A DNA stretch of 64,000 bases from Takakia lepidozioides (lineage: Eukaryota > Plantae > Bryophyta): positions 75,268,001 through 75,332,000 of the forward strand of contig CM060732.1 of NCBI GenBank assembly GCA_030704615.1, given 5' to 3'. Below, in pieces: positions 8,579 to 34,237 of the stretch (position 1 is the first letter of the stretch; each line of letters begins with the position of its first letter). The position numbers and the translations under genes were made by a program. The notes under the pieces were generated by a model that saw nothing but the letters and a program-made list of their open reading frames with translations, ran no database searches and was not told where the DNA came from.

Positions 8579-8773
8579 GTGAATACCTGTTAGATTACAG
8601 ATAGAAGTAGATGCAATTCAGCATAGGAACTAGTTTGTTATGAAAAGGGTTGACGGTTTTGCTAGAACAAATTTAGGCTGTCATTGTCAGCTGCTAGCAG
8701 CAAGACGAGGATGTATGCATGATTTATGGAGAGGCACGGACACTGAAGGAGCAGGGATAGAGTGTGGGTCCAG

Positions 8774-11700
8774 ATGCATCCAAGAGGGCCGGATTTCAAG
8801 CACAAGATTACCTGTAATCCCCTGTGGATCTCGACCATGACCACAGCTTGCCAAAAAGGACAAAGAGAGGGAGTCCACAATGCCTCTTCTGGCCCTTCTG
8901 GAAATGTGAGGATGCTATGTGAGGCAGGGCAACTGAAAGAGGCTCTTCAGACTTTAAACCAAGGAGGCATTTCAGCAGATTCAGATACTTATGTTTGTCT
9001 CTTGCATAAGTGCATCAAGATGAAAGGCTTGGAGGCTGGAAAGCAGGTGCATGCTCACATTATCCAAAGTGGATTCAAGCCAAACGTTTTCCTACACAAC
9101 ACCCTTGTCAACATGTATGTTAAGTGCGGGAGCATCATGGATGCTCATCAAGTGTTCAGCAGAATGCCTCAACGACATTTGATCATGATGGCAGGATTTA
9201 CCAAGCATGGGTGTGATAGGAATGCTTTGGAGACCTATGAGCAAATGATGCGGGAAGGGGTGAAGCCCAACCAGATCACATTTGTTTGCGTTTCCAGTGC
9301 GTGTGCGAGCCTGGCAGCCCTGGAAAAGGGGAAAGCGGTCCATGGTGACATCGTCAAATCTGGAATTGTACCAGATGTCATTCTGAACAATACCCTCGTG
9401 GACATGTATGCCAAATGTGGGTGCATCAAGAATGCAAAGGGAGTGTTTGACAATATGGCTGAACGGGATGTGGTGTCGTGGAATGCGATGATTGCAGGAT
9501 ATGCACAGCAGAGGCACGGGATGGAGGCTTTGGAGACCTATGAGCAAATGATGCGGGAAGGGGTGAAGCCCGACCATATCACGTTTGTTTCAGTTTGCAA
9601 TGCGTGTGCGAGCCTGGCAGTCCTGGAAAAGGGCAAAGAGGTCCATGGTGACATCGTCAAAGCTGGAATTGTACCAAATGTCATTCTGAACAATACACTC
9701 GTGGACATGTATTGCAAATGTTGGTGCATCGAGGATGCAAAGGGAGTGTTCAACAATATGGCTAAACGAAATGTGGTGTCGTGGAGCGCGATGATCGCTG
9801 GATATGCACAGCAGGGGCGCGGGATGGAGGCTTTGGAGACTTATGAGCAAATGATGCGGGAAGGGGTGAAGCCCGACCATGTCACGTTTGTGTCCGTGTG
9901 CAATGCATGTGCGAGCCTGACAGCCCTGGAAAAGGGCAAAGAGGTCCATGGTGACATCGTCAAAGCTGGAATTGTACCAGATGTCATTCTGAACAGTACC
10001 CTCGTGGACATGTATGCCAAATGTGGGTGCATCGAGGATGCAAAGGGAGTGTTCAACAATATGGCTGAACGAAATGTGGTGTCGTGGAGCGCGATGATCG
10101 CAGGATATGGACAGCAGGGGCGCAGGACGGAGGCTTTGGAGGCCTATGAGCAAATGGTGCAGGAAGGGGTGAAGCCCAACCAGATCACGTTTGTGTCCGT
10201 TTGCAATGCATGTGCAAGCCTGGCAGCCCTGGAAAAGGGCAAAGAGGTCCATGGTGACATCGTCAAAGCTGGAATTGTGGCAGATGTCATTCTGAACAGC
10301 ACCCTGGTGGACATGTATGCCAAATGTGGGTGCATTGAGGATGCAAAGGGGGTGTTCGAGAATATGGCTCAACGAAATGTGGTGTCGTGGAGCGCGATGA
10401 TTGCAGGATATGCACAGCAGGGGCGCGGGATGGAGGCTTTGGAGACCTATGAGCAAATGGTACGGGAAGGGGTGAAGCCCAACCACATCACGTTTGTTTG
10501 CGTTTGCAAGGCGTGTGCAAACCTGGCGGTCCTGGAACAGGGCAAAGATGTCCATGGTGACATTGTGAAAGCTGGAATTATGCCAGATGTCATTCTGAAC
10601 AATGCCCTCGTGGACATGTATTGCAAATGTGGGAGCATTGAGGATGCAAAGGGAGTGTTCGATAATATGGCTGAACGAGATGTGGTGTCGTGGACCGCAA
10701 TGATCGCAGGATATGCTCAGCAGAGGCACGGAATGGCGGCTTTGGAGACCTATGAGCAAATGGTGTGGGAAGGGGTGAAGCCCAACCACATCCCGTTATT
10801 TTGCGTTTGCAATGCTTGTGCGAGCCTTGCAGCCCTGGAAAAGGGCAAAGAGGTCCATGATGACATCGTCAAAGCTGGAATTGTACCAGATGTCATTCTG
10901 AACAATACCCTCGTCAACATGTATTGCAAATGTGGGAGCATCAAGGATGCAAAGGGAGTGTTTGACAATTTGGCCAAACAAGATGTGGTGTCATGGAGCG
11001 CGATGATCGCAGGATATGCCCAGCATGGTTGTCATAGGGAGGCCCTGCAACTATTTGAAGGAATGCAAAAGGAAGGCTTGAAGCCAGACAGTATCACATT
11101 TATTTGTGTTCTCTCTGCATGCAGCCATGTTGGCCTACTGTATGAAGGAATATGCTACTTTGATTCCCTGAGTCAAGATCATGGTGTCACTCCGACAGTA
11201 AAGCACTTTGGCTGCATGGTGGACCTTCTTGGACGTGCAGGGAGATTGGATGAGGCAGAGGACCTCATTAATAAAATGCCAATCAAACCAGATGCTGTGG
11301 TGTGGAAGGCCTTGCTTGGTGCCTGCCGAATCCATGGCAATGTGGAGATGGCTGAACGTGCAGCAACATCTATTCTCAAGTGGGATGAACAGGATGCTGC
11401 GACTTACGCGTTGCTATCAAACATCTATGCCACAGGTGGCAGGTGGGACGATAGTGCAAAGGTGAGAAAAATGATGATGGTCAGAGGGATTAGAAAGGAG
11501 CCAGGTCACTGCTGCATTGAGGTTGGCAACAGGGTGCACACCTTTGTTGTAGATGACAAATTGCATCCCAAAATTAAGGAAATCCATGCTGAGCTGAGAA
11601 GATTGTCTGGGGAGATGAAGGAGGCAGGGTATGTGCCTGACACACACTTTGTATTGCATGATGTGGGGGAGGAGCAAAATGGATTTTCTCTTTGCCACCA

Positions 11701-11908
11701 CAGTGAGAAGCTGGCCATTGGTTTTGGGCTGATCAGCACGGCCCCTAGGACACCTCTCCGTCTGATCAAGAATCTTCGTGTGTGTGGTGACTGCCACAGC
11801 TCCACCAAGTTCATCTCAAAGATTGTTGGCCGAGCAATTATTGTACGGGATGCTAACCGCTTTCACCACTTTGAAGATGGGGTCTGTTCTTGTGAGGATT
11901 ACTGGTGA
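8774..11908 (+). CDS. PLS-class pentatricopeptide repeat protein with E1/E2/DYW deaminase domain (organellar C-to-U RNA editing factor); long terminal exon
   Basis: Open frame of >1040 codons with P-L-S triplets, P2-L2-S2, E motifs (VWKALLGACRIHG), PG box PGHCCIEV, HSEKLA, CGDCH and terminal DYW. Confidence 0.95.
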   Translation: MHPRGPDFKHKITCNPLWISTMTTACQKGQREGVHNASSGPSGNVRMLCEAGQLKEALQTLNQGGISADSDTYVCLLHKCIKMKGLEAGKQVHAHIIQSGFKPNVFLHNTLVNMYVKCGSIMDAHQVFSRMPQRHLIMMAGFTKHGCDRNALETYEQMMREGVKPNQITFVCVSSACASLAALEKGKAVHGDIVKSGIVPDVILNNTLVDMYAKCGCIKNAKGVFDNMAERDVVSWNAMIAGYAQQRHGMEALETYEQMMREGVKPDHITFVSVCNACASLAVLEKGKEVHGDIVKAGIVPNVILNNTLVDMYCKCWCIEDAKGVFNNMAKRNVVSWSAMIAGYAQQGRGMEALETYEQMMREGVKPDHVTFVSVCNACASLTALEKGKEVHGDIVKAGIVPDVILNSTLVDMYAKCGCIEDAKGVFNNMAERNVVSWSAMIAGYGQQGRRTEALEAYEQMVQEGVKPNQITFVSVCNACASLAALEKGKEVHGDIVKAGIVADVILNSTLVDMYAKCGCIEDAKGVFENMAQRNVVSWSAMIAGYAQQGRGMEALETYEQMVREGVKPNHITFVCVCKACANLAVLEQGKDVHGDIVKAGIMPDVILNNALVDMYCKCGSIEDAKGVFDNMAERDVVSWTAMIAGYAQQRHGMAALETYEQMVWEGVKPNHIPLFCVCNACASLAALEKGKEVHDDIVKAGIVPDVILNNTLVNMYCKCGSIKDAKGVFDNLAKQDVVSWSAMIAGYAQHGCHREALQLFEGMQKEGLKPDSITFICVLSACSHVGLLYEGICYFDSLSQDHGVTPTVKHFGCMVDLLGRAGRLDEAEDLINKMPIKPDAVVWKALLGACRIHGNVEMAERAATSILKWDEQDAATYALLSNIYATGGRWDDSAKVRKMMMVRGIRKEPGHCCIEVGNRVHTFVVDDKLHPKIKEIHAELRRLSGEMKEAGYVPDTHFVLHDVGEEQNGFSLCHHSEKLAIGFGLISTAPRTPLRLIKNLRVCGDCHSSTKFISKIVGRAIIVRDANRFHHFEDGVCSCEDYW
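9190..11020 (+). repeat. About six near-identical 303-bp tandem units (one P-L-S triplet, 101 aa) within the PPR gene
   Basis: DNA-level repetition is visible; the antisense ORFs recur at exact 303-bp steps (9235, 9538, 9841, 10144, 10447, 10750). Confidence 0.95.
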
Positions 11909-14305: not shown

Positions 14306-14571
14306 CTATGTACAAACTACAAAACACAAAAATAGGATACACACAAAGCACGGCTGGAAATAGTAAAAGGCTGGAAATAGTAAAAGGGAAGTGAATGGTT
14401 AGCCAAGAAGGTTGAAGTACCAGAATAGCAAAAGCAAGAGCGAGGCTTTTGACGTAAAGTCGGACGCATGGGTTTTTTCAGCGTCGACTTTCTATCCCTT
14501 CTTCTCTTTCCCCCAAGCTCCGTGTTAGGATCACAAGAACACAATTGGAGAGGTTTTGTCTCCTCCGCAAT

Positions 14572-15653
14572 ATGGAGGAGATTTGGAGCAGGCTCCCATT
14601 CGAGTTAGTGATGGTAGTGTTGGCCCTTTTGCCATATCGAAGTCTTGTCCGCTTTCAATCGGTTTGCAAGTTATGGAATTCTCTCCCATCGACCGCTAGT
14701 TTCCAACAACTGTGTCAGCAACTCCCTCTTCACGAAGACTCCCATCTCTTGTCTTTTGGCAGATGCCCACATGTTTGCATGTTGTATACCCCCACAACTC
14801 GACGCTGGCACAAAATCGGCCTGAAACTCCCGAAGGATAATTCAGTACATAGTGTTGCTGCTACAGATGGAGGCTTATTTCTTTGCACAACGGACAAGCG
14901 CTACGCTGACGTATCATGGATTGTTTTCAATCCTCTCTTGAACAGTTCCAGACAATTGCCTGCCCCTAACTCAACACATATCGGGTTTGTGGACAGGGTG
15001 CACTTGATTGTGGATAGACGCAGTAAGACCTACAAGATCATTGTGATATCACACATGGACGTCAGTGGGTCACCCTGGAGAACACACATGTATGACTCAG
15101 TTTGCGAGTGTTGGACCGAGACTGGAAAGATGCCGGCATGTGAATGGCGGTGGTGTTGGCGGTGTGATGGAAGCATTATATGTGGCCCTACCCTCTTTGC
15201 TCTGTTTCTTGGACCAAAGTATCCTTTGATGGCTTATGACATTGGTGCCGGTACGTGGACTAAAGTTGTTATACACACGGCTAAGTTTGGTGAAGATGGT
15301 GATATTGTTGCTCGAAGGCTTGTAGAGAGTGAGGGGCGCCTGTTTCTAGTTGGGGGTGCTCGTGGTGGAGATGGACGACTTCTGGTAGTAATATGGGAGT
15401 TCAAAGATTCTAACAAGACTGCAGAGTGGGTGGAGATTGCAAGAAGGGAGTTCGCAACAAGGGCCCACCTGTATCACTATTTTGAGGTGGTGAGCCTGAC
15501 AATCTCATATTCATTTGGACTGACAAACCCAATCCAGTTGTGGTGTATGACATGAAGCAACACACATGGACATCTGACTTACAAACTTGGACTATGGAAT
15601 GCCATCGTGTTAAGGGTTTTGCTAGCGGTCTTAGTTTAGGTGCAAAAGTCTAG
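14572..15653 (+). CDS. Intronless F-box / kelch-like beta-propeller protein, with an apparent frameshift near 15485
   Basis: F-box IWSRLPFELVMVVLALLPYRSLVRFQSVCKLWN; GGLFLC, VFNPL, YDS..W, AYD..W, LVESEGRLFLVGG motifs. The main ORF stops at 15555; a shifted frame continues with a typical C-terminus (VVVYDMKQHTW...GFASGLSLGAKV*) to 15653. Confidence 0.85.
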
Positions 15654-17237: not shown

Positions 17238-17410
17238 TATTAAGACCCTGGACGGAGGCCTTGCGGTTTGGGAGATCTCAGCAACGAAACAAAACAAAAC
17301 AAACAAAACAAACAAACAACCTTTCTTTGGTGTAGCTCCCACAGCATGGTATCATTGAATTTGACTAAGTATAAAATGTACTATGACGAAGTTAGACTAA
17401 ACATCAAGGT

Positions 17411-17571
17411 GATATGGGGTTTGTTCTTAGTGTCATTGCTTTCTTGCTTGGAGTATTTTCATTGTCTGTCACTTCTCGTATCATTGTGGCATCGACTTTC
17501 TAGTGTATTATGTTAGGAAGTGGTTAGATAACGATGTGTGTTGTAGCACGATGCTAACTTGGTGCACGACA
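17411..17571 (+). mobile_element. Diverged 3' terminus (end of A plus B repeat) of a relative of the 22643-31935 element
   Basis: TTGTTCTTAGTGT..ATTGCTT...TTTTCATTGTCT...TATCATTGTGG...AACGATGT.TGTTGT.GCACGATGCT...GGTGCACGACA aligns by eye with 31770-31935. Confidence 0.7.
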
Positions 17572-19546: not shown

Positions 19547-22500
19547 TAAATTGTTTAAGAAAAAAAAAAAAATCATGCGATTGAATTTACCCCATTGTCG
19601 ACGTGGCGGCCTAGGTGTACTGCACACATTATATATATATATATATATATATATAAGAGCTGTCGGGCGATGGACGACGGTGGCTATATATATATTTTTT
19701 GGGTTCGAGCGACCGCTGGGCGACCGTGGCCTTTTTTTTTTTTGGTTTCAGGTGGCCTCTGAACGACGGCGACGGTTGGAGCCTGGGGACGACCGTAGCG
19801 ATGCAATCTTTATTTATTTTTGGTTCGGACGACAACGACGATCGTCGCACCCTCACTATACCGACGGCGATGGTCGGGCGACCATGACGGCCATTTCTAA
19901 TACCGATTTTTTTTTTTTTTTCATAAGTGTAATTTTCGGAGGACGTGGGTCACACCTACGTGTCACACTCTGTACCCCCTGAAAATTACATTATTGACAC
20001 CTAAAACCGACATGACGTGATCGTCATTGACGCAGATGACGGGGATTTGGAGAGCCATTTAACTCATGACATGGTGTTGAATAATTTACTCCAGTAGTTA
20101 CCATTACTCCAGTCCATTGTCGTGTGGATGTTGACATGGCATCACCCAGTATTATCAATGACTGGACATAAAATCTGACGTGGCTATTAAACATTGGAGG
20201 TTCTACTGAGACACGTGTCTATTGTCAATGGTTTTGTTTTAGATTAATAATAGGATGTGACATAACAACAATATTATACTACTCAACTCACACATAATAT
20301 ATCAAACCACTATGTCAGTGGTCTAGCATTCCCCAGCAATGTACCCAAGGAGCCAGGGATCATTGCTGACGATGGGGACTCCATCATGGACAAAAGACAC
20401 AAATACGCCATAGGAAAGTGTTACACCTGCACCACAAAATACCCAAAATGTGGGGAAATGCTAGACCGTGAGTAGCTCACATGAGTAAAAAATTACCTGA
20501 GCATCAAACTGCTTACTCTAGGCTCACCATCAAAGCAAGGGGTCTATAACCGCGGACACCACAGCTACATAGGGCCTATTATCGCGGGTAGGAGATGTGA
20601 AAAACAATCATCCTCTCAGGTTTGGGGTTGCTACAAAATAAAGTGTGACACATGTTGCATGCCTACGACTGAGCTATCTAATGAAGTTCAAATTGTTGCT
20701 GGAGGGATTCCCTTCACTGGAAGATCCTTCTTTCTTGGACCGTCTTGTTGCACTTGTGGGGAGCTTTGAGTTTTCAGACGTCATGATGGGCAATGCCTAC
20801 GGTCAATGGTGTGTTAAATTAATGGTAACACCTCTTCTTCATGGCCTGCATCTGTGTTTCTCTATTTTGTTGTTGATGGTTTGTGTCCCTACATTTGACA
20901 TTAAGTTCTATGCCTCCATGCATTTCTGTGCTATTTTGTCATTGTGCACCATGGAACTCCAGGCCGATAGGAGATAGGGTAATGTTTGGTGGATCATATA
21001 AGAATTCCACCTTAAGCAGACAAAAATCTTAGTGGAATGAGGCACAATTGCTTGATTGGACACCTGCACTCGACCGCTTTTGAATGAGGACCAAGAGAGG
21101 GAATCAACAACAACTCTTCTAGCATTTGTGGGGATGTGAGTACACATGTAATGCAGGACATTTGACGGAGGTGCTGCACATTTTGAACCTTCAAGGCATA
21201 ATTGCTGCAGAATACTTACTCCTATCTCTTGCAAAAGTGCATCAGCATGAAAGGCCCAGCAGAGGGAGAGCTGGTGCACTGCCATATCATCAGAAATGGG
21301 ATTCAATCCACATTGACTCCCATCTCCTGGGAGAGATGGCTCATCATTTGTTGAGTTGGTTGCAACTCATCCGCCACGTCACTTTGTTCATTCTGCTGCA
21401 AACTCGGATTTGGTAGACAATTTACCTCATCCTCCCCTTGAGCTTCAACTGTACCGAGTAATGGATCCTTTTTCGTCGCCAGACCACGACAGTAGCACAC
21501 CTTCCTTTATCATTTTCTCATAAATCTCCAACCATATCAATACCCTCCTCCAAGTAAATATGATATCTAGTTCAGGCATTTTTATACATCCACTATGGTC
21601 CCGCACTTGGCATGCACGTTGACAAAGGTGTTGAGTAGAGAGATGTATCAGAAAGAGATCATGGAGGACTTCCAATGCGAAGGAGAAGAAATAATTCGTT
21701 GAATATTCCAACAGGAGGAAGCAGACATGGAATTGTCCAAGGTCATTATTGCACTCCTCAACAAGTCATACCACCTCCAGTAGACTCTTGGCCCGCTTTA
21801 GTTTCTGAGCCACCTCAAGAACAAGAAGCCACCACCAAGGAAGCCATGATGCTCAATACAATGAACAGAGCCTCCAACTTGCTAACAAACTACTTTAAGG
21901 ATTATGTACCCTTAAAGCAAGTGGACACTTTAAGGGTACATAATGGGTGGGTTCCTATAAGGTTGCCTGAAATGCGGCACCCTTTTCCTCTTTCACACTT
22001 GTTGTCTTGACCAAGAATGGAAAAAGGGCGTTGCATTTCCTTGGTCGAGACCCTTCCCAGTACCTTTTTCTCCGGGTTCTTCTAGGGTTGCCTGCGAAAT
22101 ACGACACCTTTTTTCTTCTTTCTTAGGTGGCTTCACACATGGGGAATTGCTGGTCACTAATTTCACGAGCTCCCTTGTTGTTAGGTTGATACGTACTAAT
22201 TTTTTGGGGGCAACAAATTCGAGGTGTGCATATTGTACTTGAAACTTCTTTCTTGAAAGTTTGTACTGTAAGAACTTGTATACATTCACAATCCCGAGGG
22301 TGCCACCAAGAGATATTCTTGTCCTTGGCTTTGAAGGGGCCATGAGCCCCGCAATGTGTAAACTTACTTGCAAAGTGTGGATGATGATGTTTGAATCTCA
22401 AGCCTTGAATTTCACATAGTTGCATCATCAGTCTGAGGTTCAACTTCATAAACTTCTGGTTAGCCTTCTTCAAATGACCTACATAGTTCTGTTCGCGGGG

Positions 22501-22642
22501 AATGATGTTGAGGTCCGCGCCAGTGTTGGGCGGGTATTACTGTTTCTAATACCAGCCGGGTCCGGGTATTGAAATGAAATTAATTTGCAATACCAGCCGG
22601 TTCCATAGTATTGAAAGATTCCCTTAATTTTAATACCTGCCA

Positions 22643-23062
22643 TGTCATGGTTTTAGTCATGGTTATCTAGAATTACCTACTTCTAGTTAACTAGGACATT
22701 TTAGATATTTATATTTATATTTTGTGTGTTGGGACTTCATTGGGTCTCACATGCCAAGTGAGGTGTCGAGCCTCACTTGGGACATGGGGATAGGTTTTCC
22801 CCTTGTGAGGATGGAGGAGGCTCATCTTCTTGTAGTTGAGCCTCCATGAGCTTCTCTCACCTCCATAGCTCTAGGTTTGAGAGGGAGTGTGTTGAGGGCT
22901 TTGTAGGGTGGATTCCCTTAGCAAGGGTGCCCTTGGCTTGACTTAGTTTATGTGATAAAGTGGATTTCACTTGGAAGGACTAGGGCTTGTTCTTAGTGTG
23001 ATTGCTTCATGCTTTAAGAGTTTTCATTGTCTTCCACTTCTTTCATTTCTCATCTCTTATCA
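22643..23062 (+). repeat. Terminal repeat A1 (LTR-like, 420 bp)
   Basis: Matches 31428-31847 with about 6 substitutions and one 1-bp indel by eye. Confidence 0.95.
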
Positions 23063-24371
23063 CTATAAGAAGATCACCTTATGCTTGTGAGTGCGGAGTG
23101 TAAGGATTAGTTTTGCACTTGTATGTTAAAGAGGTTGAGAGCTAGGAGAATTTAGCTCTTGTATCACAAGGCTTGCAAGGGGTTGCAAGGAAATGTACTC
23201 GAGTGTTGCATGCACTAAGGAGTTGGAGAGCTTGAGAAGAAAGCTCTTGAGTCACAAGATTTTGCAAGGATTGCAAGGAGGAAGTCTTGTGTGTGTGGAA
23301 GCATGGATTCTAGGGTTTGATAAACATTTGTATGCATTATGGAGTCAATGGTATGCGCTATGGCTTGTGGAGAGTGACTAAAGGCTTGTTAGTGCTCATT
23401 TCACTATCAAGCTAGGGTTAAGCAAGTTCAAAGTGTGGATGTTGTGGAAAAGAAGCCAAGGAGCTACATAGGCTTTGGGCTTGAAGACAACAAGGGCAAG
23501 TACTTGGAGAGTACTAATAAGCTCAAGAGGTTTTGAAAGGAAGCATGTGAAGAAATCTTCCAATCATAGTGGGGTGGAGCCAAGCTTTAAGGCGCCATTG
23601 GAAGGGCTTGGAGAACATATGGTGGGAAATCCTTGAAGGGAAATCATCATTCAATGTATGCATAGCTTCACCCTAACTATGTAATGTGACAAGAGGGGGA
23701 GGCAATACTTGGCTATTCATGCTCTTGGTAGTGCGAGCTTTGTGGTGGATAGTTGACCAAGCAAGTGGTGCATGTGTGGAGCATGCTCTCTTTGAGTTTG
23801 TAAGTTCAAGTTTGAGAAGGGGAGCTTTTGAACTAGCAAGAGGTGAAGGCCTTGAGATCCATTTGTGTGTGAAGTGGAGAGGTGTTGATTCATGTTATGA
23901 TGAAGGAGAGCAACAGATAGGCCAAGAGGTCATGGAACATGCATTCAAATGACCAAGGGGAGCACATGGATGATGGATTGGTGCAAGACCCCAAATGAGG
24001 CATATGGTGGGATCCAAGGCGGATTGCTTGGGAGCATTATTGTAAGTGACAAGCATCTGCTTCTACACATTGAGATAATTTGTGTTGATTTGGAGCAATT
24101 GTCAAGTGATGAGGAGACAAATGCATGATTGCTCGGCAATGGAGATATGGTAGTTTGTAATCAAATCCCAAGGACTAGAAGGGGGATTGATTTGGTGGAC
24201 AATGACTTGCAAGTTGAGTTGGACCACTCTTGGTTGCACATTGGGGTGGAAGAGAGCAAGAAGATGCCTCTTATGACCACCTAGAGACCATATTTTTGCT
24301 TGAGTAGAAGCATAGAAGTCAAGGACTTGCATTCTAGCTCTTCATTACAAACCCTAGTAGTGTATGCTCAG

Positions 24372-24626
24372 ACTATACCTCTGTTAGTATACCAAACAAG
24401 AGCTTGTCCCTTTGACTATACCTCTGTTGAGGTATCACCATATGTGAACCCTAATATGAGACTATACCTCTGTTAGTATACCAAACAAGAGCTTGCCCAT
24501 TTTACTATACCTCTGTTGAGGTATCACCATATGTGGACCCTAATCAGCTCAGACTATACCTCTGTAAAGGTATCATCAACATAAGGGACCCTAGCAACCT
24601 CAAACTGTACCTCTGTTAAGGTATCA
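24372..24626 (+). repeat. Six-copy hairpin-forming repeat array in the element leader
   Basis: ACT(A/G)TACCTCTGT at 24372, 24415, 24461, 24504, 24553, 24604; 89-bp higher-order dimer. Confidence 0.85.
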
Positions 24627-24654
24627 ACATTGAAAGGACTTAGTGAAATTTAAA

Positions 24655-24800
24655 GGCCTTTGGAGGATTGTTTGGAAGATATTTCAGGGCCCTTGGAGGA
24701 GTATTTGGAGGATCTTTGGGGTCCTTGGAGGATTGTTTGGAGGATCTTTGGGGTCCTTGGAGGAGTATTGGAGGACCCTTCGAGGAGCTTTGGTGGACAA
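24655..24800 (+). repeat. TTGGAGGA-based minisatellite (about 11/33-bp period) in the element leader
   Basis: Repeated CCTTGGAGGA.T.TTTGGAGGATCTTTGGGGT units. Confidence 0.8.
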
Positions 24801-25456
24801 TGTTGAAGAGCTCTTGAAGGATTGATTGAGGGATATTTGAAGGATACTTGCCATGGCCATACAAGCGAGTGGATAGAGAAAGGAGAGAGAGTGGTGGGAT
24901 GAGAGCATTATGGGATTAGGAATTGCTTTAGTTTCTCTTCTCCATAGTCTTTCACCATCTCTGCAGGCCAAAACCTTTCCGTAGGTGGAGGCAAAAGTCA
25001 GTCCAGGTTTGGGCTGGGGTGTCCTTGCAGGAGCGACACTGTGGAGTGTTTTTGGTGTGGGGGAGTTGCTGTCTTGATTTTCTTGTGTTTGGATCCCCTC
25101 CACACCTGCATGCTTGACTGTGCGTCATGTTAGCTTTGTGTGGGCGCTTGTTTTCATAGGAGGTTGGTCCGGATTTGATCACCGGCCAATCCTAGAGTGT
25201 GCTGTCGGTGGTGAGGCTGGAGTGATGACTAGCAAGACCACCAGTGTTTCTTCTATGGTGAGGCTGGGTTGATGACCAACAGACCATAGGAGTGCTTGCG
25301 GTGGATGCAGGTGCAAGTACAGATCTACGTTAGAAACCTATTATTCATGCTTGAACCAGTAGCCGCAACAGGTTCTCTACCCGGTTACCTTGTAGATTAA
25401 AGTGGGGATTAGAGACAGGTTGACAACCGGTTGGGTTGTGAGTTTTCGTCACGGAG

Positions 25457-25820
25457 GTGCCACCAGTTGCTAAGGGGAGTGCCGGTACAAACACCAGCGA
25501 TACTAGTGGGTACACAAGACGAGGTGTGCGGTTTAGGCCACCTTCACCTTCAGTGTCTTCTGAGGAAGGTTCAGACTCGGAGTCAGGAGGATTCTCGTCG
25601 AGGGTGCAAGTCATTTCCGTGCCATTGATGTGGGACACGATGGAGGAGATGTATGGAGCTACCAAGGGGCCACGTAGGTACTCTGGAGCTGTGGGCACCA
25701 TCGAGCTTGATGACTTCATACAAGAGTTTGACATTGGTGTGATTTGCAGCAAATGCGCAATCCACAACTGTTTACGCCCTTTATGGCGTGGAAGGGGATA
25801 TTCCAGTACCTTGAGGGGTT
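25457..25820 (+). pseudogene. Truncated gag N-terminus
   Basis: PRRYSGAVGTIELDDFIQEFD (frameshift) WCDLQQMRNPQLFTPFMAWKGIFQYLEG, then an abrupt jump to pre-protease sequence; most of gag appears deleted. Confidence 0.55.
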
Positions 25821-25879
25821 GCAGGAGTTGCCAGCTAGGCCAGCCATTGAGTGCAGTATGGTGACTCTTGGGGTAGTCT

Positions 25880-26260
25880 TGGTGGACAATCAGGATGGAG
25901 TGTTTCAATTGGGTGGCCCAGCCGGGAGGAGGTATAGGCCACTGCGGGTCTTGTTGGACTCGGGAGCACAGCCATTGATGTTGGGGAGAGCAGCAATTGC
26001 AGGCTTGGGCCTTACAGAGCCTTGCCTTTTCCAAATTCAAACATCTTTGGGCGGTTCAGAGAAGGCACGAGGGATTACACGCCATGAGCTCTTCATTCGA
26101 TTGTAGCCAGATCATCCTACAGATGACTCTGTCATGAGAGCTAAAGCCATTGTTACGAACGCGATGTCTTATGATGTGCTTGTTGGTGGGGTTGTGTTAT
26201 ACCCGATGAGCTTTACTTTGGACTTTTGGGAAGAAAGGACATCCTACAGGCCGGAATGGC
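25880..26260 (+). pseudogene. Retropepsin aspartic protease domain
   Basis: RVLLDSGAQ active-site motif and C-terminal YDVLVG motif; one in-frame TAG at 26104-26106. Confidence 0.85.
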
Positions 26261-26658
26261 AGTCAGGGGATGGTCGACGTGCACTACTTCCAGTCCGGTT
26301 TATTGGGAATGTAGCAGTGGATCATAGGAACATGATGCCCACATTGGCTGCATTCTCAGGGGTGGTGGCTTGGGGTGGTGAGCTCTTAGAGGGCAATAGC
26401 CATGCAGATGATAGACCACCACCTGATGAGGACAAACAATTGGCATACAAGGCTGATTTGCTTCCTCATGTGCTTGTTCATATTCCACTGTGGGATACAG
26501 TTGGGAATTTGCATCGAGTAGCAGGCGAGTGTGTGCACCAAGCATGGCAGGAGGCCTATCCATTGGTGAGTGAGGGGAGTTCAGTGACATCACCCGGACC
26601 TCCTCAGTTAGCTCCTTTGGACACAATGCCCATTACCTGGCAACCACCCGACTCAGGG

Positions 26659-27620
26659 ATTTGTTTGCTAGACATGTTTGGAGGCATGAGCACTGGGCTT
26701 GCAGGAGTGTTGCAAGCAGGGATTGAAGTACGCAAGTACTTGTATGTGGAGAAGGATGAGATAGCTCGGCGTATTTCTATACGCCACATCGCTTTGCTCA
26801 CACACCGGTATTCTGAGTTGGTGCCTCTCTCAGCAAATCAAGGGTATCAAAAGGCCTTGCCAGCAGACATTATCTTGCTGGGGGCGGATGATTTGGACCA
26901 GCATGGTGCCATTGACTTGGTGATAGCTGGATGGACTTGCCAAGGACACTCTCCCGCAGGTCATGGGAATGGCTTGCATGATGCACGATCGCATTTCTTC
27001 TGGGAGATGTTGAGAGTGTTGCGTGACTTGCAGACGAGGCAAGTGCAACCTCTAGCCTATATCTTGGAGAATGTTCCTCTTATGGGGGGCTCTCGGGCCA
27101 GGGTTATGACCAGTGTACATCAGGTGCGGTCTTGGATTGGATCGGCGGTGCTATTGGATGCAGCAACTGTGGGATCACGAGCGCATCGACCTTGATTGTG
27201 GTGGACCAATCTTGCACCACCAGAACTGCTCAAGAGAGCATACGATTCAATTCAACGGCCACCCAATCTCACAGTTGATGGCATTTTGGACCAATGGAGG
27301 CAACCACAGAGGGTGCGACATGATGACCGTCCACCTCTAGCAGTGGTAAATCGAGTGGGGCAGCCACGTGCAGCCTTGCATACGCTCATGAGCTTTCCCT
27401 CGTCTCATGCTTTTCGAGACAATGGTCCTGGATTGATTTGGGACAGTGTGCTACAGTAATTGGTGGAGCCCAATGCGGATGAGCGAGAGCGGGCAATGGG
27501 ATTTGCCACGGGCACTACAGCTGTGCCAGCTCTGTCAGAGGCTTCATGACGCTAGGTGTTGGATCAGGCAATGGATCTCAATTGTTTGACATGGGTCATT
27601 GGCTTGTGCATGGCTGAACA
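26659..27620 (+). pseudogene. DNMT3-like C5 cytosine DNA methyltransferase domain within pol
   Basis: Motif I LDMFGGMSTG; II YVEKD; III ADI; IV DLVIAGWTCQ; VI ILENV; VIII AHRP*LWWTNL; IX ERERAMGF; X *R*VLDQAMD; linear I-X order. Confidence 0.9.
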
Positions 27621-28101
27621 ACGGAGATTGCAAGCACTGGTGGCTACTTCTGCACTTCCATTGGATATTGCACCATCTCTGCCAACCAGGACGGTGGAGG
27701 CAGTGAGCGGGGGCGAGCACATGATCATGGGGTGCAAACACCCATGGCAGATGTGGGATGAGATGCGCAAAGAGAGAGAGTCATTGGATCTCTCAAGCAG
27801 TATGAGGAGTGGGAGAGCCAACACTAAGGATCAGTTGGCGGCCAATGTGACCAATGCTTTTGAAGAGGTTGAGAATGTTTCTTCCCCAGAGGATGTTCTC
27901 AAGGTGGCTATGGCGGAGCAAGTGGAGGCTACGCCACGGTCAAGGTGGGCGGATAAAGCCCAAGAGGTTGCTATCTAGCAACCAAAGGATGCGTCTCCTA
28001 CTTCCAAGCCTGGTGTACCCAAGGTTGCAGTCACTGAGGACAACTGGGAACCAGATGTTGGACCTACAGTCACCGGAGGAGAGAGGCGGAGGATCCAGTG
28101 A

Positions 28102-29465
28102 TTTCTAAGGGCTTATAGAAATTGCTTTGCCTTCGGTTTGAAGGATTTGGGGAGTTTAAAGGACCAGGAGATTCGTATTGATTTGACAAGTGACATGCCA
28201 ATTTTTCGAAGGCCCTACAGGTATAGTGATATGGAGAGGTCTTTGATCCAGTCACGGACTATGGAGTTGTTCAAAGCTGAATTGGTGGAGTTGTCAGGTG
28301 GGGAGTATGCCTCGGCAACGGTGATGCCAGCTAAGAAAGATATCTATGGCAATTGGACAGAAAAGAGGATGTGTGGGGCCGTCCTGTGAACCGTCAGACT
28401 AAGTCCGATAGATATGCCATGCCAACTCCAGAGGAGATCTTTGATGCCATTGGGCATGCAAAGGTGTTTAGCACATTGGACTTGCGATCTGGTTACCACC
28501 AGTTGCCAATCAAGGAGGCTGACAAGCAAAAGAGGACATTCTGGGGGATTGACCAACATGGGAAGGATTGCTTGTACCAATGGCAGTTCCTACCGTTTGG
28601 GTTGAAGAATGCTCCTGCAGAGTTTCAGAGGGTCATGGATAGGATTCTTGCGGGGCTAGACTTCGCCCGGTGCTACATTGATGACCCATCATCATCTTTA
28701 GTGCTACGATTGAGGAACACGAGAGACACCTTCAGATGGTGTTTGAGCGTTTGAGAGCGCTTGGGTTGAAATTGCACCCTGGGAAGTGCAAGTTCTTCAA
28801 CAACCAGATTGAGTATTTGGGCCACATGATATACCCTGGAGGATTGGGTGTTCAAAAGACGAAGGTGGAGGCCATTGCAAGCATTCCACACCCCATTGAT
28901 GTTATCAGAGTTCGTGCTTTTATGGGGTTGACAAACTACTATCGATGGTTTGTTAAGGGGTTTAGCAGCATTGCAAAGGCTCTTACCAAGTTGACCAAGG
29001 CGGGTCAGGAGTGGCAGTGGGAGGAGGAGCAGGAGGAAGCCTTTGAGGAACTCAAGGCTCGATTGACTTCTGCGCCTATTCTGAGGCGACCTATTCGGGG
29101 GCGGTCTTTCTAGCTACATACGGATTGGTATGCTGGGGATTGGAGCAGTGCTCACACATGTGGATGATGAGGGAAGAGAGTTCATAGTGGCATATGTTAG
29201 CCGCTCGAACAATGATGCCGATGCGAAGAATAGTTCCTATGAAGGGGAGTGTCTAACTGCAGTATGGGCAGTGACACATTTTAGATGCTACCTCTATGAC
29301 AATCTCTTCACCCTTGTCACGGATCACCAATCATTGAAGTGGTTGATGGAGTCAGACAAGCTTACAGGAAAGCTTGCACGGTGGGTATTTATGCTTCAAG
29401 AGTACGACTTCCAGGTGGTGCATTGAGCCGGAATAGTCAACCGGGATGCGGATGGATTGAGTCAC
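28102..29465 (+). pseudogene. Reverse transcriptase and RNase H
   Basis: IFRRPYRYS, FSTLDLRSGYHQ, LPFGLKNAPAEFQRVMD, YIDD, KLHPGKC, YLGH; RNase H LHTDW, YEGECL, TDHQSL, ADGLS; frameshifts near 28378, 28686 and 29128. Confidence 0.95.
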
Positions 29466-29849
29466 AATCCATGCACAAGTGAGCTTGATGATACAGGAGC
29501 TCGTTGGCATGGTGAGACGGACGAGGAGATGGTGCCAGGATGGCACGCATTTGCCTTTTTATGCATTCTAGCAATGGGAGCTCAAGCTGGTCCATCCCAT
29601 GCGATTGGTCATAGAGATGGTGTGCATGACTATCTAGAGATCAGTGAGGAGCTTGGTGGTGCTAAGGATGTACATGAAGATGCAGCAGTGTTGGCCTACC
29701 TTCGTACTAGAGAGACAACAACTAGTGTGACTGCTAAGGAGAGAGATCAGATTCTACAACGAGCTAAGAGGTTCAAGTGGGAGGGGACTTACCTACTCCA
29801 AGTATGGGAGGATGGACGAGTGAGGATTGTGCCTCATCCAACACAACGA

Positions 29850-30930
29850 GCGCGATTGGTACGCCATGCCCATGAGGAGTTGGGACATTTTGGGGTGCGG
29901 CGCACTCATAGTTTGCTGCAATGACAGTATTGGTGGCGGGGCATGCACACGGATGTGCAATAGTTAGTGGCAAGGTGCATGGTGTGTGATAGTGTGCGGG
30001 CTTCTTTCAATGCACCTACTCCACAATTGCATCCTTTACCCATTATGGGTTTGGGCTATCATTGGAGTCTTGATTTCGCAGACCCATTGCCACCAACGAT
30101 TCGTCATAACAAGTATGTGCTGGTGATGGTGGAACATTTCTCCAAATGGATTGAACTGGTGGCATTGCCTGACAAGGCAAGTGAGGGGGCTGCGTATGCA
30201 TTCTTAGATCGATTGCTTAGCCAATTTGGTGCTTCAGTTGAGGTACTCATAGATTAGGGGAGAGAGTTCTTAGGAGAGTTTCAGGCTTTGTGTGAACAAG
30301 CCTTGATAGATCACCGCACTACTTCTCGGGATCATCCCGAGGCTGATGGCTTGGCCGAAAGGGTTGTGCAAACAGTCAAGCAAGGTCTGCGGATGGCTTT
30401 GCAGAAGGGACACTTGGGAGATTGGGACCTTCAACTACCTTGGTTGGCCATGGATTACAGGTTTAGCAAACAAGCATCACTTGCCTCGTTCTCGCCTTAT
30501 TTCCTTCTCTTTGGCCAAGAGCCAGATTTGCCTGCATCTATTCGCAGGGAAACTGCAGTAGTCCTCAACCTTGATGATCCGGATGTGTGGACACAAGCAT
30601 GTGCCCAACGGGCAGAGTTGTTCAAGAGAGTCATGCCTATGGCTTTTGATAACCTTGCTATTGCCCAACACCGAGACACATTGAGGTACGCCACTATATG
30701 TGGAGGAGGATATCGGCCAGGTGTTCGGCGTTTCCATTATGGGACTATGTGTATCTGCAGCAGACAATGCCTATGACCTTGGATGTCACAGCTGGTTATG
30801 TGATTCTAAGGGTCTGGGAGGTGTTGCCTTCAGGAGTGTTGATTCTGGAGGGTCGAGATGGCATGGTATGGAAGGATCATGTGCGCAATTGTACGCCATG
30901 TCACCTTCCACATGTGGATGGAAGGATAGA
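29850..30930 (+). pseudogene. DDE integrase
   Basis: HHCC zinc finger (HEELGHFG...CMVC), WSLDF, VEHFSKW, ID*G (DQG), DGLAERVVQ, SPYFLLFG. Confidence 0.92.
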
Positions 30931-30964
30931 TCCCAACCTTACAGTGGTACCTGCAGGGTTGCGT

Positions 30965-31099
30965 TGCATGCTATGTGGGCATGCTGGTGGTGCCGCGACC
31001 ATGTTCGTATGTGGCAAATGCTCAAGGGGGTGGCACATGGGATGCTTGACACCGCCACTTGAGGAGGTTCCTAGTGGAGAATGGTTGTGTCCACGATGC
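30965..31099 (+). other. PHD finger (C4HC3) at the integrase C-terminus
   Basis: CMLC...MFVCGKC SRGWHMGC LTPPLEEVPSGEWLCPRC, stop at 31114. Confidence 0.92.
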
Positions 31100-31371
31100 C
31101 TTGGACAGAGGTAGTGGGGCATGACAGTGGCGAGGTTGACAAGTGATCCAAGGTGTAGCTAATGGGAGTTTGATGCCATGGACACCCAATTGAAGCCATG
31201 GATTGCACGAAGGCGAGTAGTGATGGGGTTACTTTTGTACCCAGCCTCTTGATCTATTGACCTCAGATAGTGGGAGTTGGGCGATTGATGACCAAACGAT
31301 GATCATATTGGGATGGATACTTGTTAGCTATCTGGTGTTAGAGGGACCTAATCACCGGCTAGGGGGGCGAT

Positions 31372-31935
31372 TGTGGTATAGCTTTCTAGGATTGTATGGT
31401 GGCCACGATGCTTAGGTGCACGACAGCTGTCATGGTTTTAGTCTTGGTTATCTAGAATTACCTACTTCTAGTTAACTAGGACATTTTAGATATTTATATT
31501 TATATTTTGTGTGTTGGGACTTCATTGGGTGTCACATGCCAAGTGAGGTGTCCAGCCTCACTTGGGACATGAGGATAGGTTTTCCCCTTGTGAGGATGGA
31601 GGAGGCTCATCTTCTTGTAGTTGAGCCTCCATGAGCTTCTCTCACCTCCATAGCTCTAGGTATTGAGAGGGAGTGTGTTGAGGGCTTTGTAGGGTGGATT
31701 CCCTTAGCAAGGGTGCCCTTGGCTTGACTTAGTTTATGTGATAGAGTGGATTTCACTTGGAAGGACTAGGGCTTGTTCTTAGTGTGATTGCTTCATGCTT
31801 TAAGAGTTTTCATTGTCTTCCACTTCTCTCATTTCTCATCTCTTATCTATTGTGGTATAGCTTTCTAGGATTGTGTGCTTAGATTGTGTGGTGGACAACG
31901 ATGTATGTTGTGGCACGATGCTTAGGTGCACGATA
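31372..31935 (+). repeat. 3' composite terminus B1 (31372-31425) - GC - A2 (31428-31847) - B2 (31851-31935)
   Basis: B1 and B2 share TGTGGTATAGCTTTCTAGGATTGT...CACGATGCTTAGGTGCACGA(C/T)A; A2 matches A1. Confidence 0.9.
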
Positions 31936-34237
31936 GCCAGTTCTCAATAGTAGTATGATTTTCGATTTGCGGACGAGTATCAATAGGATGGTTATTCCAA
32001 TCTAATACCAGCCGGTTATCAACCCGGGTATAAATAATCAAAATTAAAAATTAAAATAACCACTAAATCATGGAATTTAGAAGATTTCAATTAATTTCAC
32101 AAAGAAATTAATTATTATGTTGCAAAATTCAGTTTTGCATTACATGATAACAACGTTGCAGATTTCAGTATCCAAGCTTAGTTAATCCCTAAAGGACGAG
32201 CTATTTTTTGGTGGCCCACTAAAAAGGGTGCATACCCTTATGGACCAGGGTGTAATTTCTTACCCCCGATCATCCATGGGGATGAACCTTATACTTATGT
32301 GCGTATCTACTAGATCCATGTCATGTAAAAAATATAGGCAAATTGACCCTTGCATTCTGGAGATTATAACAAACTAATATGCCCCAATTTGTAAATATAT
32401 TCAAGAGTTGCATGGAAAAAATTGTTTGACCACAAAATTGAAGTATCAAGTTGAATCTTTCTAGACAAAGGCCCTCCATAATCTGATTATATGGCACCTA
32501 AACTACTGCCTCCCCCAAAAAAATGACCAAAATTCCAAAATTTCAGATAGGCTGCTTTGTATGTGAAATTTGGGGGGTAAATTATCTTGTTTTGGCTTCT
32601 TTCCCAAGTATACCCATGAGGTGACATTTGTTTTCCAATTCTGGTAAGTAAGTGCACAGTAACATTTCAAGGTGCCTTGTCCAAATTTTTTGGCATTATG
32701 ATAAATTTTCCGCCCTAGATGTTATCTTGAAGATTGCCCATTTGGCTACCACGTAGGCAGGTCAATGGTGCTCTAACACTGGATCTCCTGAAACCCTGGC
32801 ACTTTGCAAAATTTTAGGGAGCAAAGCTTTTATGGATTTTTGGTGCTGTAAATTCCCACATGTGCTCCTCTCTGACATCTACAATTCATCTTCAAGGTTC
32901 ACTTCTATCCATTATCATCCATGGGAACTGGAGCGTGGCAAGTAATCTCACGCCACCCGATTCGGGTCGCGTCGTCCTTTGGGGATTAAAAGAAGCCTGA
33001 TTGCAACCCTCATCTTCAAATAAACCAGCATCTGCAATGAGGTCCTCATAAGACACCCTATATATGCTAAAAATAAATAAAGAATAAGGGCGGGCCCACC
33101 CTACATGTGGTAGTGGCGGGCCCTTGGGGCTGGACATGCCCTGCCTGACATGTGCACCCTCTTACCCTGACCCTGACATATTGTGTACCCGCCAATTTTG
33201 TATTCAAACCATGGTATAGTTCTTGTTTTTGCCCATAATAGGGGTATGCACCCCGGTATTGCCTTGGCAATACCAGCCGGTCCGGTTATCAACCATAGTA
33301 TTGGAATTGCCAATACCAGCCGGGTCGGTTATTCAATACCCTGGTTGATACCCGGCCAGACCCTATATACCAATCCAACAGTGGTACAGGCAAGCAAGCT
33401 GTCTACAAAAGCACATTTGGGTTGACAATGTAATGGCTTGGTGAAATCATCAGTGGGTTATGTATTATGTTTCAGGGGGTTTTGCAATTGAGACAGGCAA
33501 ATGATGTGTACGAGTGCAGCACCATCTCGAAGGGAAGCTCCGCCTGGGATATTTCAACGGAACCACCAGTCTGAGGTTCAACTTCATAAACTTCTGGTTA
33601 GCCTTCTTCAAATGACCTGCAGAGTTCTGTTCACGGGGAGTGATGTTGAGGTCCGCACAGGCACATCTGCTACCTTGTCTTTGGGTCAATCAATATGAAT
33701 TAATGCTTTCATAAAGTTGTAAGCACTTTCCAGGAAATCTCAATACATGTTCACCAACAATGCTCACAAATAAGCAAGACCCTCTCAAGTCTTGCATCTC
33801 ACATATCAATCTAGTTGACTGTCTAGCAGACCCTAAGGCTCCTTGGAGCCACTTCAAATCGTCCCTGCTTCTCCACATACTAGTGGGAACCATGCAGACT
33901 TTCAAGTCTCTGGTAAATTCATAGCCAGAAAATCCACAGGTGTTACCAACCCTATTTGCCAGGAGAATGGAATGGACTACTATATGGATAGTGTTAGCTA
34001 TCCTGTGTATGAATACATCACTTGAGCTCAAGGACAGGTGTATGATTCACTTTGATGTGTTCCAAAGTTGCTATGACAGGACATGACGAGCCTTATCTGA
34101 TGGAGATCAAGAGCACTCACAATTCAAGTTGATGGCAACAAGAACAGTGTAGATCATCGGGTTAGTAGCCAATATGACTTTCCACTCTTGGTTGAATGAG
34201 TGTCTCATCATCATGTATATGTGAAATTTTAACTACA

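Follow-up and report, generated by a model that had tools for sequence, protein, structure and literature searches.

Does a moss retrotransposon carry a DNA methyltransferase of its own as a working part, and, if so, on what would that enzyme act? The question is raised by a stretch of 64,000 nucleotides from Takakia lepidozioides (contig CM060732.1 of assembly GCA_030704615.1, positions 75,268,001 to 75,332,000), which we call the window and in whose own numbering all coordinates are given; every part of the element described below lies on its forward strand. Positions 22643-31935 hold a decayed, gag-deleted Gypsy element of this moss, flanked by GCCA on both sides, with the domain order protease (PR), C5 cytosine methyltransferase (MT), reverse transcriptase (RT), RNase H (RH), integrase (INT) and PHD finger. 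A first reading of the letters alone (the sequence-only reading) had taken PR, MT and RT to be one polyprotein and had proposed that the packaged enzyme could methylate the new cDNA. We lean towards a modified form of this, predicted from sequence, in which MT would stand at the end of a Gag-PR open reading frame (ORF), ahead of a stop that is likely read through, and would be packaged and methylate the element's own new cDNA.

The element was compared with loci from a metagenome scan, in which 123 relatives were found and 80 were kept (65 after removal of near-duplicates), and with copies in the host genome surveyed through contigs of public sequencing runs, where summed depth is not copy number. 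Since the scan used ENV and motif II patterns, counts of those two motifs in the loci are biased. Papers are cited by PMC number from the parts of their text that were accessible.

Reading frame and conserved stop

The frame from 25744 to 28389 holds the LLDSGA site of the protease, MT motifs I to X in linear order and the start of RT, with seven internal stops (26104, 27193, 27457, 27547, 27553, 27976 and 28099) before its final stop at 28387. With X written at the stops it is matched by PF00145 with an E-value of 2e-8, above the curated cut-off, which was the check that the sequence-only reading had proposed. Pieces further downstream match RVT_1, RT_RNaseH, Integrase_H2C2, rve and PHD in other frames, and from RT onward the coding region is disrupted by frameshifts near 28380, 28685, 29130 and 30740. 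The domain order and these matches bear out the assignment to a Gypsy element. The claim of one frame broken only by seven point stops can be kept in part: the shared frame and the seven stops are as described, but the frame takes in the start of RT and not the whole of it, and only six of the stops are decay.

The seventh, at 27976-27984, reads UAG CAA CCA. Of the 44 non-redundant sister loci that cover the site, 40 have an in-frame stop there; in the other four it is out of frame once, a sense codon once, and the region is missing twice. As a background for decay, the share of sisters with a stop at any one codon never exceeds 32% within the five conserved domains, and the six other placed stops of the window, which lie in conserved domains or at their edge, are common to 0-29% of them. 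Three lineages whose DNA is about 65% alike have kept the stop. Five predicted proteins (three from Marchantia) end 88-94 residues after motif X. Judged from these comparisons, the stop at 27976 is not decay, and MT ends a Gag-PR-MT ORF there, so that the single PR-MT-RT polyprotein stands only insofar as the three share a frame.

A stop followed by CARYYA is the read-through signal of the tobacco mosaic virus (TMV) type (PMC4132726), and the TMV signal gives 6-10% read-through in transgenic Arabidopsis (PMC2754532). The window has the same exact context, here placed between Gag-PR-MT and RT of a retrotransposon, and shares it with one sister locus (L026). We consider it very probable that the stop is read through and that RT-RH-INT-PHD would be made as the read-through product. 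With Gag-PR-MT as ORF1 and RT supplied by read-through, MT would be as abundant as the capsid. The conserved stop thus predicts a Gag-level dose of MT, about ten times that of RT if a TMV-like efficiency holds, which bears on whether cDNA or chromatin would be the target.

The methyltransferase domain

The MT domain of the window (26656-27618) is decayed, with four stops, TC in motif IV and LDQ in motif X. Its motifs run linearly from I to X; the circular permutation that is the trait of DRM enzymes (VI-X before I-V) is not seen, and the match to DRM2 is confined to motifs I-IV. The solved structure that best matches the MT of an intact relative is that of DNMT3A (E 6e-12). A profile built from 59 MT sequences scores 101 bits with DNMT3A, compared to 57 and 43 with DRM-type enzymes, 38 with M.HhaI and 27 with DNMT2. 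Six phage methyltransferases picked from the best hits reach 74-90 bits with this profile, and in single-sequence scores two phage enzymes, at 60 and 56, outscore DNMT3A at 48; the margin of DNMT3 over the phage group is modest. A predicted model of MT (pLDDT 92.6) has its best Foldseek matches in DNMT3A/B (E 1e-19), and aligns to them with a Z of 29.3 and an rmsd of 2.6 over 278 aligned positions, the next families reaching 25.8 and 24.2 (M.HhaI 24.2). In a tree that included no host DNMT3, all 59 element MTs fall on one side and five phage methyltransferases on the other, with the bryophyte sequences as a starred clade. Searches of phages and plasmids with MT gave only 24-31% identity among the matches listed, and a search of viral contigs gave no relative of the element. 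By sequence and predicted fold, the MT of the family is DNMT3-like, and the sequence-only reading was right to set its linear motifs apart from permuted DRM.

Conservation in the family and decay of the window copy

The catalytic PC of motif IV is present in 57 of the 65 non-redundant sister loci; a consensus lacking PC had been named beforehand as evidence against activity, and it is not what the sisters have. Motif I (which binds S-adenosylmethionine, SAM), the catalytic Cys, Glu-Asn of motif VI and Arg of motif VIII are retained in most rows of the alignment. Between lineages, the proportions of nonsynonymous and synonymous change (pN and pS) are 0.25 and 0.74 for MT, 0.19 and 0.73 for RT and 0.30 and 0.73 for the protease, where pS is saturated and the selection ratios are thus bounds. 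Of the minority variants listed in one host run (X1), 11 of 13 are synonymous, compared to an expectation of 25-34% (p 3e-4, transitions-only expectation). Distances in the MT and RT trees co-vary over 28 elements (Mantel r 0.67, 0 of 999 permutations as high). These patterns indicate that the MT domain is under purifying selection in the family. In the window copy it is not maintained. The check on selection that had been called for is thereby answered, and with sister loci that carry MT under such selection the domain does not look like a one-off capture.

In the window the catalytic PC reads TC and motif X is damaged, as had been noted. At the motif IV residue, the four MT stops and the motif X residue, 93-99.8% of the depth in run X1 differs from the window, and the damage to MT (the TC motif and the four stops) is private to this copy. 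It differs from most sisters at 23 of 701 MT sites (3.3%). In the host species 2,244 contigs lie over these 701 bases of MT, which is not a copy count but points to an abundant family with many copies. Another run, which may be RNA (X11), gave 56 contigs of low depth and is no guide to expression. The window copy is likely unable to move itself. It was likely copied in trans after the onset of decay, because its coding region is more decayed than repeats that are 98.3% identical would predict; the repeat, however, is poor in CpG and may be slower to mutate.

Damage extends to other domains. The Gag N-terminus (25640-25818, found by tblastn with Marchantia P0007) has a frameshift near 25733 and is followed by a deletion of about 530 codons that includes the zinc knuckle, so that about 530 residues of Marchantia Mp4g09160 are absent at 25818/25819 and the frame opens with 25 codons left over from Gag, joined to the pre-protease region. 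Sister loci, unlike the window copy, carry a full gag. The pre-protease region and aspartic protease (25819-26319) have DSG at 25957 and one decay stop at 26104; the window protease has no Pfam match, and Asp_protease was matched in 5 of the 14 relatives scanned. RT and RNase H (28045-29480) are broken by stops and by the first three frameshifts named above. The DDE integrase (29838-30338) has both its H2C2 zinc finger (PF17921, E 1e-15) and its rve core (PF00665, E 1e-12), and the C-terminal PHD finger (30965-31099; PF00628, E 2e-10) lies past the fourth frameshift.

Repeats, priming and integration

The boundaries of the element are fixed by an empty site, since contigs of the host species join 22638 to 31936. 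Between the two copies of a 4-bp target duplication (GCCA at 22639-22642 and 31936-31939) the repeats are ordered A-body-B-A-B and are not paired long terminal repeats (LTRs). Repeat A1 (22643-23062, 420 bp, TG...CA) begins at the left end and is 98.3% identical to A2 (31428-31847). Repeat B1 (31372-31425) is 30 bp shorter than B2 (31851-31935), which forms the right end, and is followed by a 2-bp spacer that gives the junction CA-GC-TG. A junction CA-NN-T(G/A) is found in all six sister loci that have a B1-A2 type junction, and a polypurine tract stands immediately 5' of B1 (31361-31370), in the same position as in the sisters. A canonical element would have two full terminal direct repeats with the tract beside the right one; here the A copies are not both terminal. 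We rejected the A copies as ordinary LTRs because they have no target duplication of their own and the tract precedes B1.

The element is inserted within another repeat (22400-22638 and 31940-32200), with its empty site in many contigs. The leader is 2.6 kb long, about twice that of the sister loci, and has two short tandem arrays (89-bp and 32-bp units) at 24370-24790. A right-end remnant of a related element, at 17400-17571, consists of the 3' part of an A-like repeat followed by a B-like repeat ending CACGACA.

Primer sites for tRNA typically start with TGG. The predicted primer-binding site of this element, the 12 nt after A1 (23063-23074), has no such start and pairs with 22824-22835 inside A1, the predicted 5' end of the transcript and self-primer, through 11 Watson-Crick pairs and one G-U; none of 200 control 12-mers paired as well. 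The stem is paired in both the minimum free energy and the centroid folds, and the stretch 22822-23085 as a whole folds no more stably than its shuffles (z -0.94). Sister loci show the same kind of pairing with another sequence, located 30 nt downstream of the TATA box where this is intact. A test that allows for wobble placed the best partner at an offset of 163-167 in 11 of 19 sister loci and beat all controls in 5; it missed in 8, in some from a misplaced repeat end. An exact-match test in L057, a mutated copy, found no partner. From this conserved pairing we regard self-priming of reverse transcription as probable.

Ordinary reverse transcription with the polypurine tract before B1 would yield a cDNA that has B-NN-A at each end. 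In most copies the A2-B2 junction corresponds to a join of those two cDNA ends, and the CA-NN-TG junction, split in two, gives the ends of the integrated element. This suggests that the element integrates from a circle that is cut at a junction inside it. IS3-family transposases cut a circle at such a junction. A symmetric circle with two repeats would also predict a mirror form, A-B-A-body-B; none of 19 sister 5' ends has this form, nor does the window, and its absence counts against the simple version of circle integration. We also tried and rejected an origin of the short A-body-B forms straight from one-repeat circles, given that L042 and L073 share one site yet show a short and a long form; short forms need no special route because recombination between B copies or assembly collapse would suffice. 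A tyrosine recombinase, the trait of DIRS, PAT and Ngaro elements, was not among the families matched by the scanned frames.

Host range and layouts of the family

Wherever covered, the 80 metagenome loci have the order gag-CCHC-PR-MT-RT-RH-INT-PHD. This fixed place of MT between protease and RT agrees with the earlier statement that MT is not a nested insertion. All but two of the 65 non-redundant loci form one clade that groups with Sphagnum proteins, the exceptions (L026 and L033) being a third lineage. Full A-body-B-A-B structures are found in five loci (L032, L052, L056, L057 and L071, with one near-duplicate pair), and 4-bp duplications flank L032, L057 and, with one mismatch, L056. Short A-body-B insertions with 4-bp duplications are found in L034, L042, L051 and L078.

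Protein relatives were named from Marchantia, Riccia, Calypogeia and Sphagnum. Relatives in Closterium and K. nitens (Klebsormidium nitens) were named in 4 of the 10 clusters looked up, and a relative from Scenedesmus, with MT between RNase H and integrase, in 1 of 10 clusters looked up for that layout. No vascular plant, hornwort, Physcomitrium or Ceratodon is named among the 26 and 120 matches listed, which is weak evidence. Among 176 mapped proteins, MT lies before RT or after Gag/protease in 39 and after RNase H or before integrase in 88; in 46 only MT and in 3 only protease was mapped, and a PHD finger is present in 50. The second layout, with MT between RNase H and integrase, is a large sister group that forms one clade (support 94 in the MT tree and 99 in the RT tree), of which our literature search turned up no description. 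One protein with an element-type MT (P0370), deposited as Candidatus Obscuribacterales on a 2-kb contig, clusters in the tree with sequences from the elements and is probably plant or algal DNA binned in error.

The MTs of Sphagnum cluster with those of liverworts and not with that of the window moss, and a moss clade, a grouping named from host taxonomy after an earlier tree had been seen, is rejected (p-AU 0.005). Sphagnum-like and Marchantia elements are 75% (MT) and 82% (RT) identical, compared to 59% for a host kinase pair from Sphagnum and Calypogeia. The element tree does not follow the hosts, which could reflect either old paralogy or horizontal transfer.

Possible roles of the methyltransferase

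With a leaky stop, read-through would leave MT at Gag levels. MT would then be packaged with Gag and freed by the protease, it would methylate the element's new cDNA inside the particle, and new copies would arrive already marked like host heterochromatin. We expect with good confidence that MT is catalytically active in active members of the family, and the DNMT3 of SymbioDIRS methylates CG de novo in yeast (PMC5890265). That the cDNA in the particle would be the substrate we favour with rather less assurance.

Several results weigh against this reading or narrow it. The main sister clade has CAACCC, which agrees with 5 of the 6 positions of CARYYA, and two relatives without the stop (P0178 and P0183) are single ORFs of 2327 and 2138 aa; for both reasons the stop is to be seen as a feature of the bryophyte clade and not of the whole family. 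The closest tested relative, the Gypsy enzyme of K. nitens, was inactive in yeast, a result its authors call inconclusive (PMC5890265). In algal and unnamed relatives another residue often stands in place of the Pro of PC (15 of 46 rows have GWECQ), and MT is under weaker constraint than RT (shared-variant pN/pS of 0.56 vs 0.43 in the main sister clade, within which ratios are higher because post-insertion decay dominates). Stop-free MT domains were found in only 1 of 58 sisters, most sampled copies being dead. At 0.52, the CpG ratio of the MT region hardly departs from the 0.53-0.58 of the flanks and gives no compositional sign of self-methylation.

The alternative that survives best, although we consider it unlikely, would have an active MT in the nucleus, working on chromatin at integrated copies, insertion sites or competing elements, where it would damp the family or reshape the host methylome while the PHD finger of the integrase guided insertion. 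Gag-level output would exceed the need of two cDNA strands, the window element and the 50 mapped proteins do have that PHD finger, and de Mendoza et al. raise both accidental host methylation and self-restraint (PMC5890265). However, the second layout, the commoner of the two among the mapped proteins, puts MT within Pol and beside the machinery that makes cDNA, as would suit a cDNA substrate, and the methylome of K. nitens is of the ordinary plant type (PMC5890265).

Less probable again is that MT is kept for some job other than 5-methylcytosine in DNA, for instance methylating the genomic RNA, or binding or flipping bases at the CA-NN-TG junction or the ends of the cDNA. The inactive K. nitens enzyme (PMC5890265) and the weaker constraint on MT would fit such a job, as would the variability of the motif IV Pro and the third position of motif VI in algal and unnamed relatives. 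Against it stand the SAM-binding motif, catalytic Cys, motif VI Glu-Asn and motif VIII Arg kept in most rows, a fold closest to DNA-bound DNMT3, and the low score of the tRNA methyltransferase DNMT2 beside that of DNMT3A. That MT is a one-off capture, a nested insertion or a domesticated host gene with no role for the element, as its dead state in the window and in nearly all sampled copies and the annotation of Marchantia copies as host genes might suggest, is very improbable in the face of its fixed position in 80 loci, its presence in seven named genera, purifying selection, co-divergence with RT and target duplications around whole elements.

Beyond the cDNA-methylation reading itself, we offer a wider history only as a tentative possibility. 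In this history, an old Gypsy clade of the green lineage (chlorophytes, Klebsormidium, Zygnematophyceae, liverworts and mosses) would have captured one DNMT3, kept it and moved it between two polyprotein sites. In bryophytes a leaky stop would keep the amount of enzyme on a par with that of the capsid, and the element would be self-primed, with its cDNA ends circularised and cut at CA-NN-TG to give A-body-B-A-B, and with copies arriving pre-methylated.

Neighbouring features of the window

A PI4-kinase gamma gene at 60500-62494 on the reverse strand is 69% identical to that of Sphagnum balticum, 57-58% to those of Ceratodon and Physcomitrium and 55% to that of Calypogeia. By this measure the host is probably a moss that branched early and is not Sphagnum. 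On the forward strand, a PPR-E-E+-DYW RNA-editing factor with six 303-nt repeats lies at 8747-11908 and identifies the host as a land plant, with two repeats of 577-579 nt upstream of it, an F-box ORF lies at 14458-15555, and a zf-RVT fragment at 45316-45825 suggests a LINE remnant. Positions 22426-22518 are repeated at 33564-33656. Of 12 other ORFs in the window scanned against Pfam, one had a match.

Comparison with known elements

Retrotransposon-borne MTs are in print for dinoflagellates and one charophyte, and PMC5890265 (de Mendoza et al. 2018) describes both, as the sequence-only reading had noted. Our literature search likewise turned up no characterised embryophyte example, nor any land-plant or chlorophyte description, although bryophyte sequences may already appear in the supplementary figures of PMC5890265 and PMC12344493. 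The accessible parts of PMC10952607, PMC8557442, PMC6673714, PMC12344493, PMC6317226 and bioRxiv 2023.01.30.526367 hold no land-plant description; those of the plant LTR survey among them (PMC6317226) have no occurrence of 'methyltransferase', 'PHD' or 'Marchantia'. The survey of 96 genomes in PMC5890265 includes Physcomitrella and Selaginella, and its accessible supplements have no Marchantia or Sphagnum by term.

The abundance of the element in mosses and liverworts, together with its relatives in Closterium and Scenedesmus, would turn a local oddity into an old green-lineage clade. The Marchantia copies are of practical value, as their annotated Gag-PR-MT frames keep the catalytic motifs and both genetics and methylomes are routine in this plant. 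Copies annotated as host genes in Marchantia, Sphagnum and Calypogeia can inflate counts of methyltransferases, and these elements would probably be mis-called by LTR finders built to look for paired terminal repeats. The combination of split repeats and a DDE integrase points to a route of integration that has not been described.

Host DNMT3, represented by the human DNMT3A/B structures and by the Physcomitrium DNMT3 cited in PMC10952607, is alike in its linear motifs, AHR in motif VIII, ER..GF and R..LG in motifs IX-X and the same fold. It differs from the element MT in its sequence, with 23-26% identity in the structural alignment, and the element MT lacks chromatin-reading domains and is fused to Gag-protease. 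Tf1, Tj1 and Tcn1 self-prime (PMC4600332, PMC6317226). As in the moss element, the primer site of Tf1/Sushi elements and Tcn1 is complementary to a sequence within the 5' repeat, but these elements have ordinary paired LTRs, and Tj1 also has a stop between gag and pol. SymbioDIRS-Dnmt3 and SymbioLINE-Dnmt likewise carry a C5 MT on a retrotransposon, the DIRS type also with repeats in the order A-coding-B-A-B, but they integrate by a tyrosine recombinase and a LINE endonuclease, respectively (PMC5890265), whereas the moss element has a DDE integrase and 4-bp duplications.

The moss element is of the same kind as KnitGypsy-Dnmt3 of the charophyte K. nitens, which has the repeats of SymbioDIRS-Dnmt3 with Gypsy domains (PMC5890265). 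The two share a Gypsy PR-RT-RH-INT with DDE integrase, an intronless, non-permuted, DNMT3-related MT, the repeats and purifying selection, and the K. nitens protein GAQ93235.1 has CCHC, protease and MT in the same order. They differ in their hosts, a charophyte and a land plant, and in their MTs, which are only 35% identical and are not sisters in the tree. In PMC5890265 MT is assigned to the Pol ORF and its acquisition is put 'in the K. nitens lineage', and the accessible text of that paper makes no mention of read-through, self-priming, target duplication or host range. In the moss element MT ends ORF1 before the conserved stop; the K. nitens protein, which is labelled partial, stops 12 residues past MT. 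Judged from the sequences compared here, the family would extend the known K. nitens kind by a wider host range and by two previously undescribed signals.

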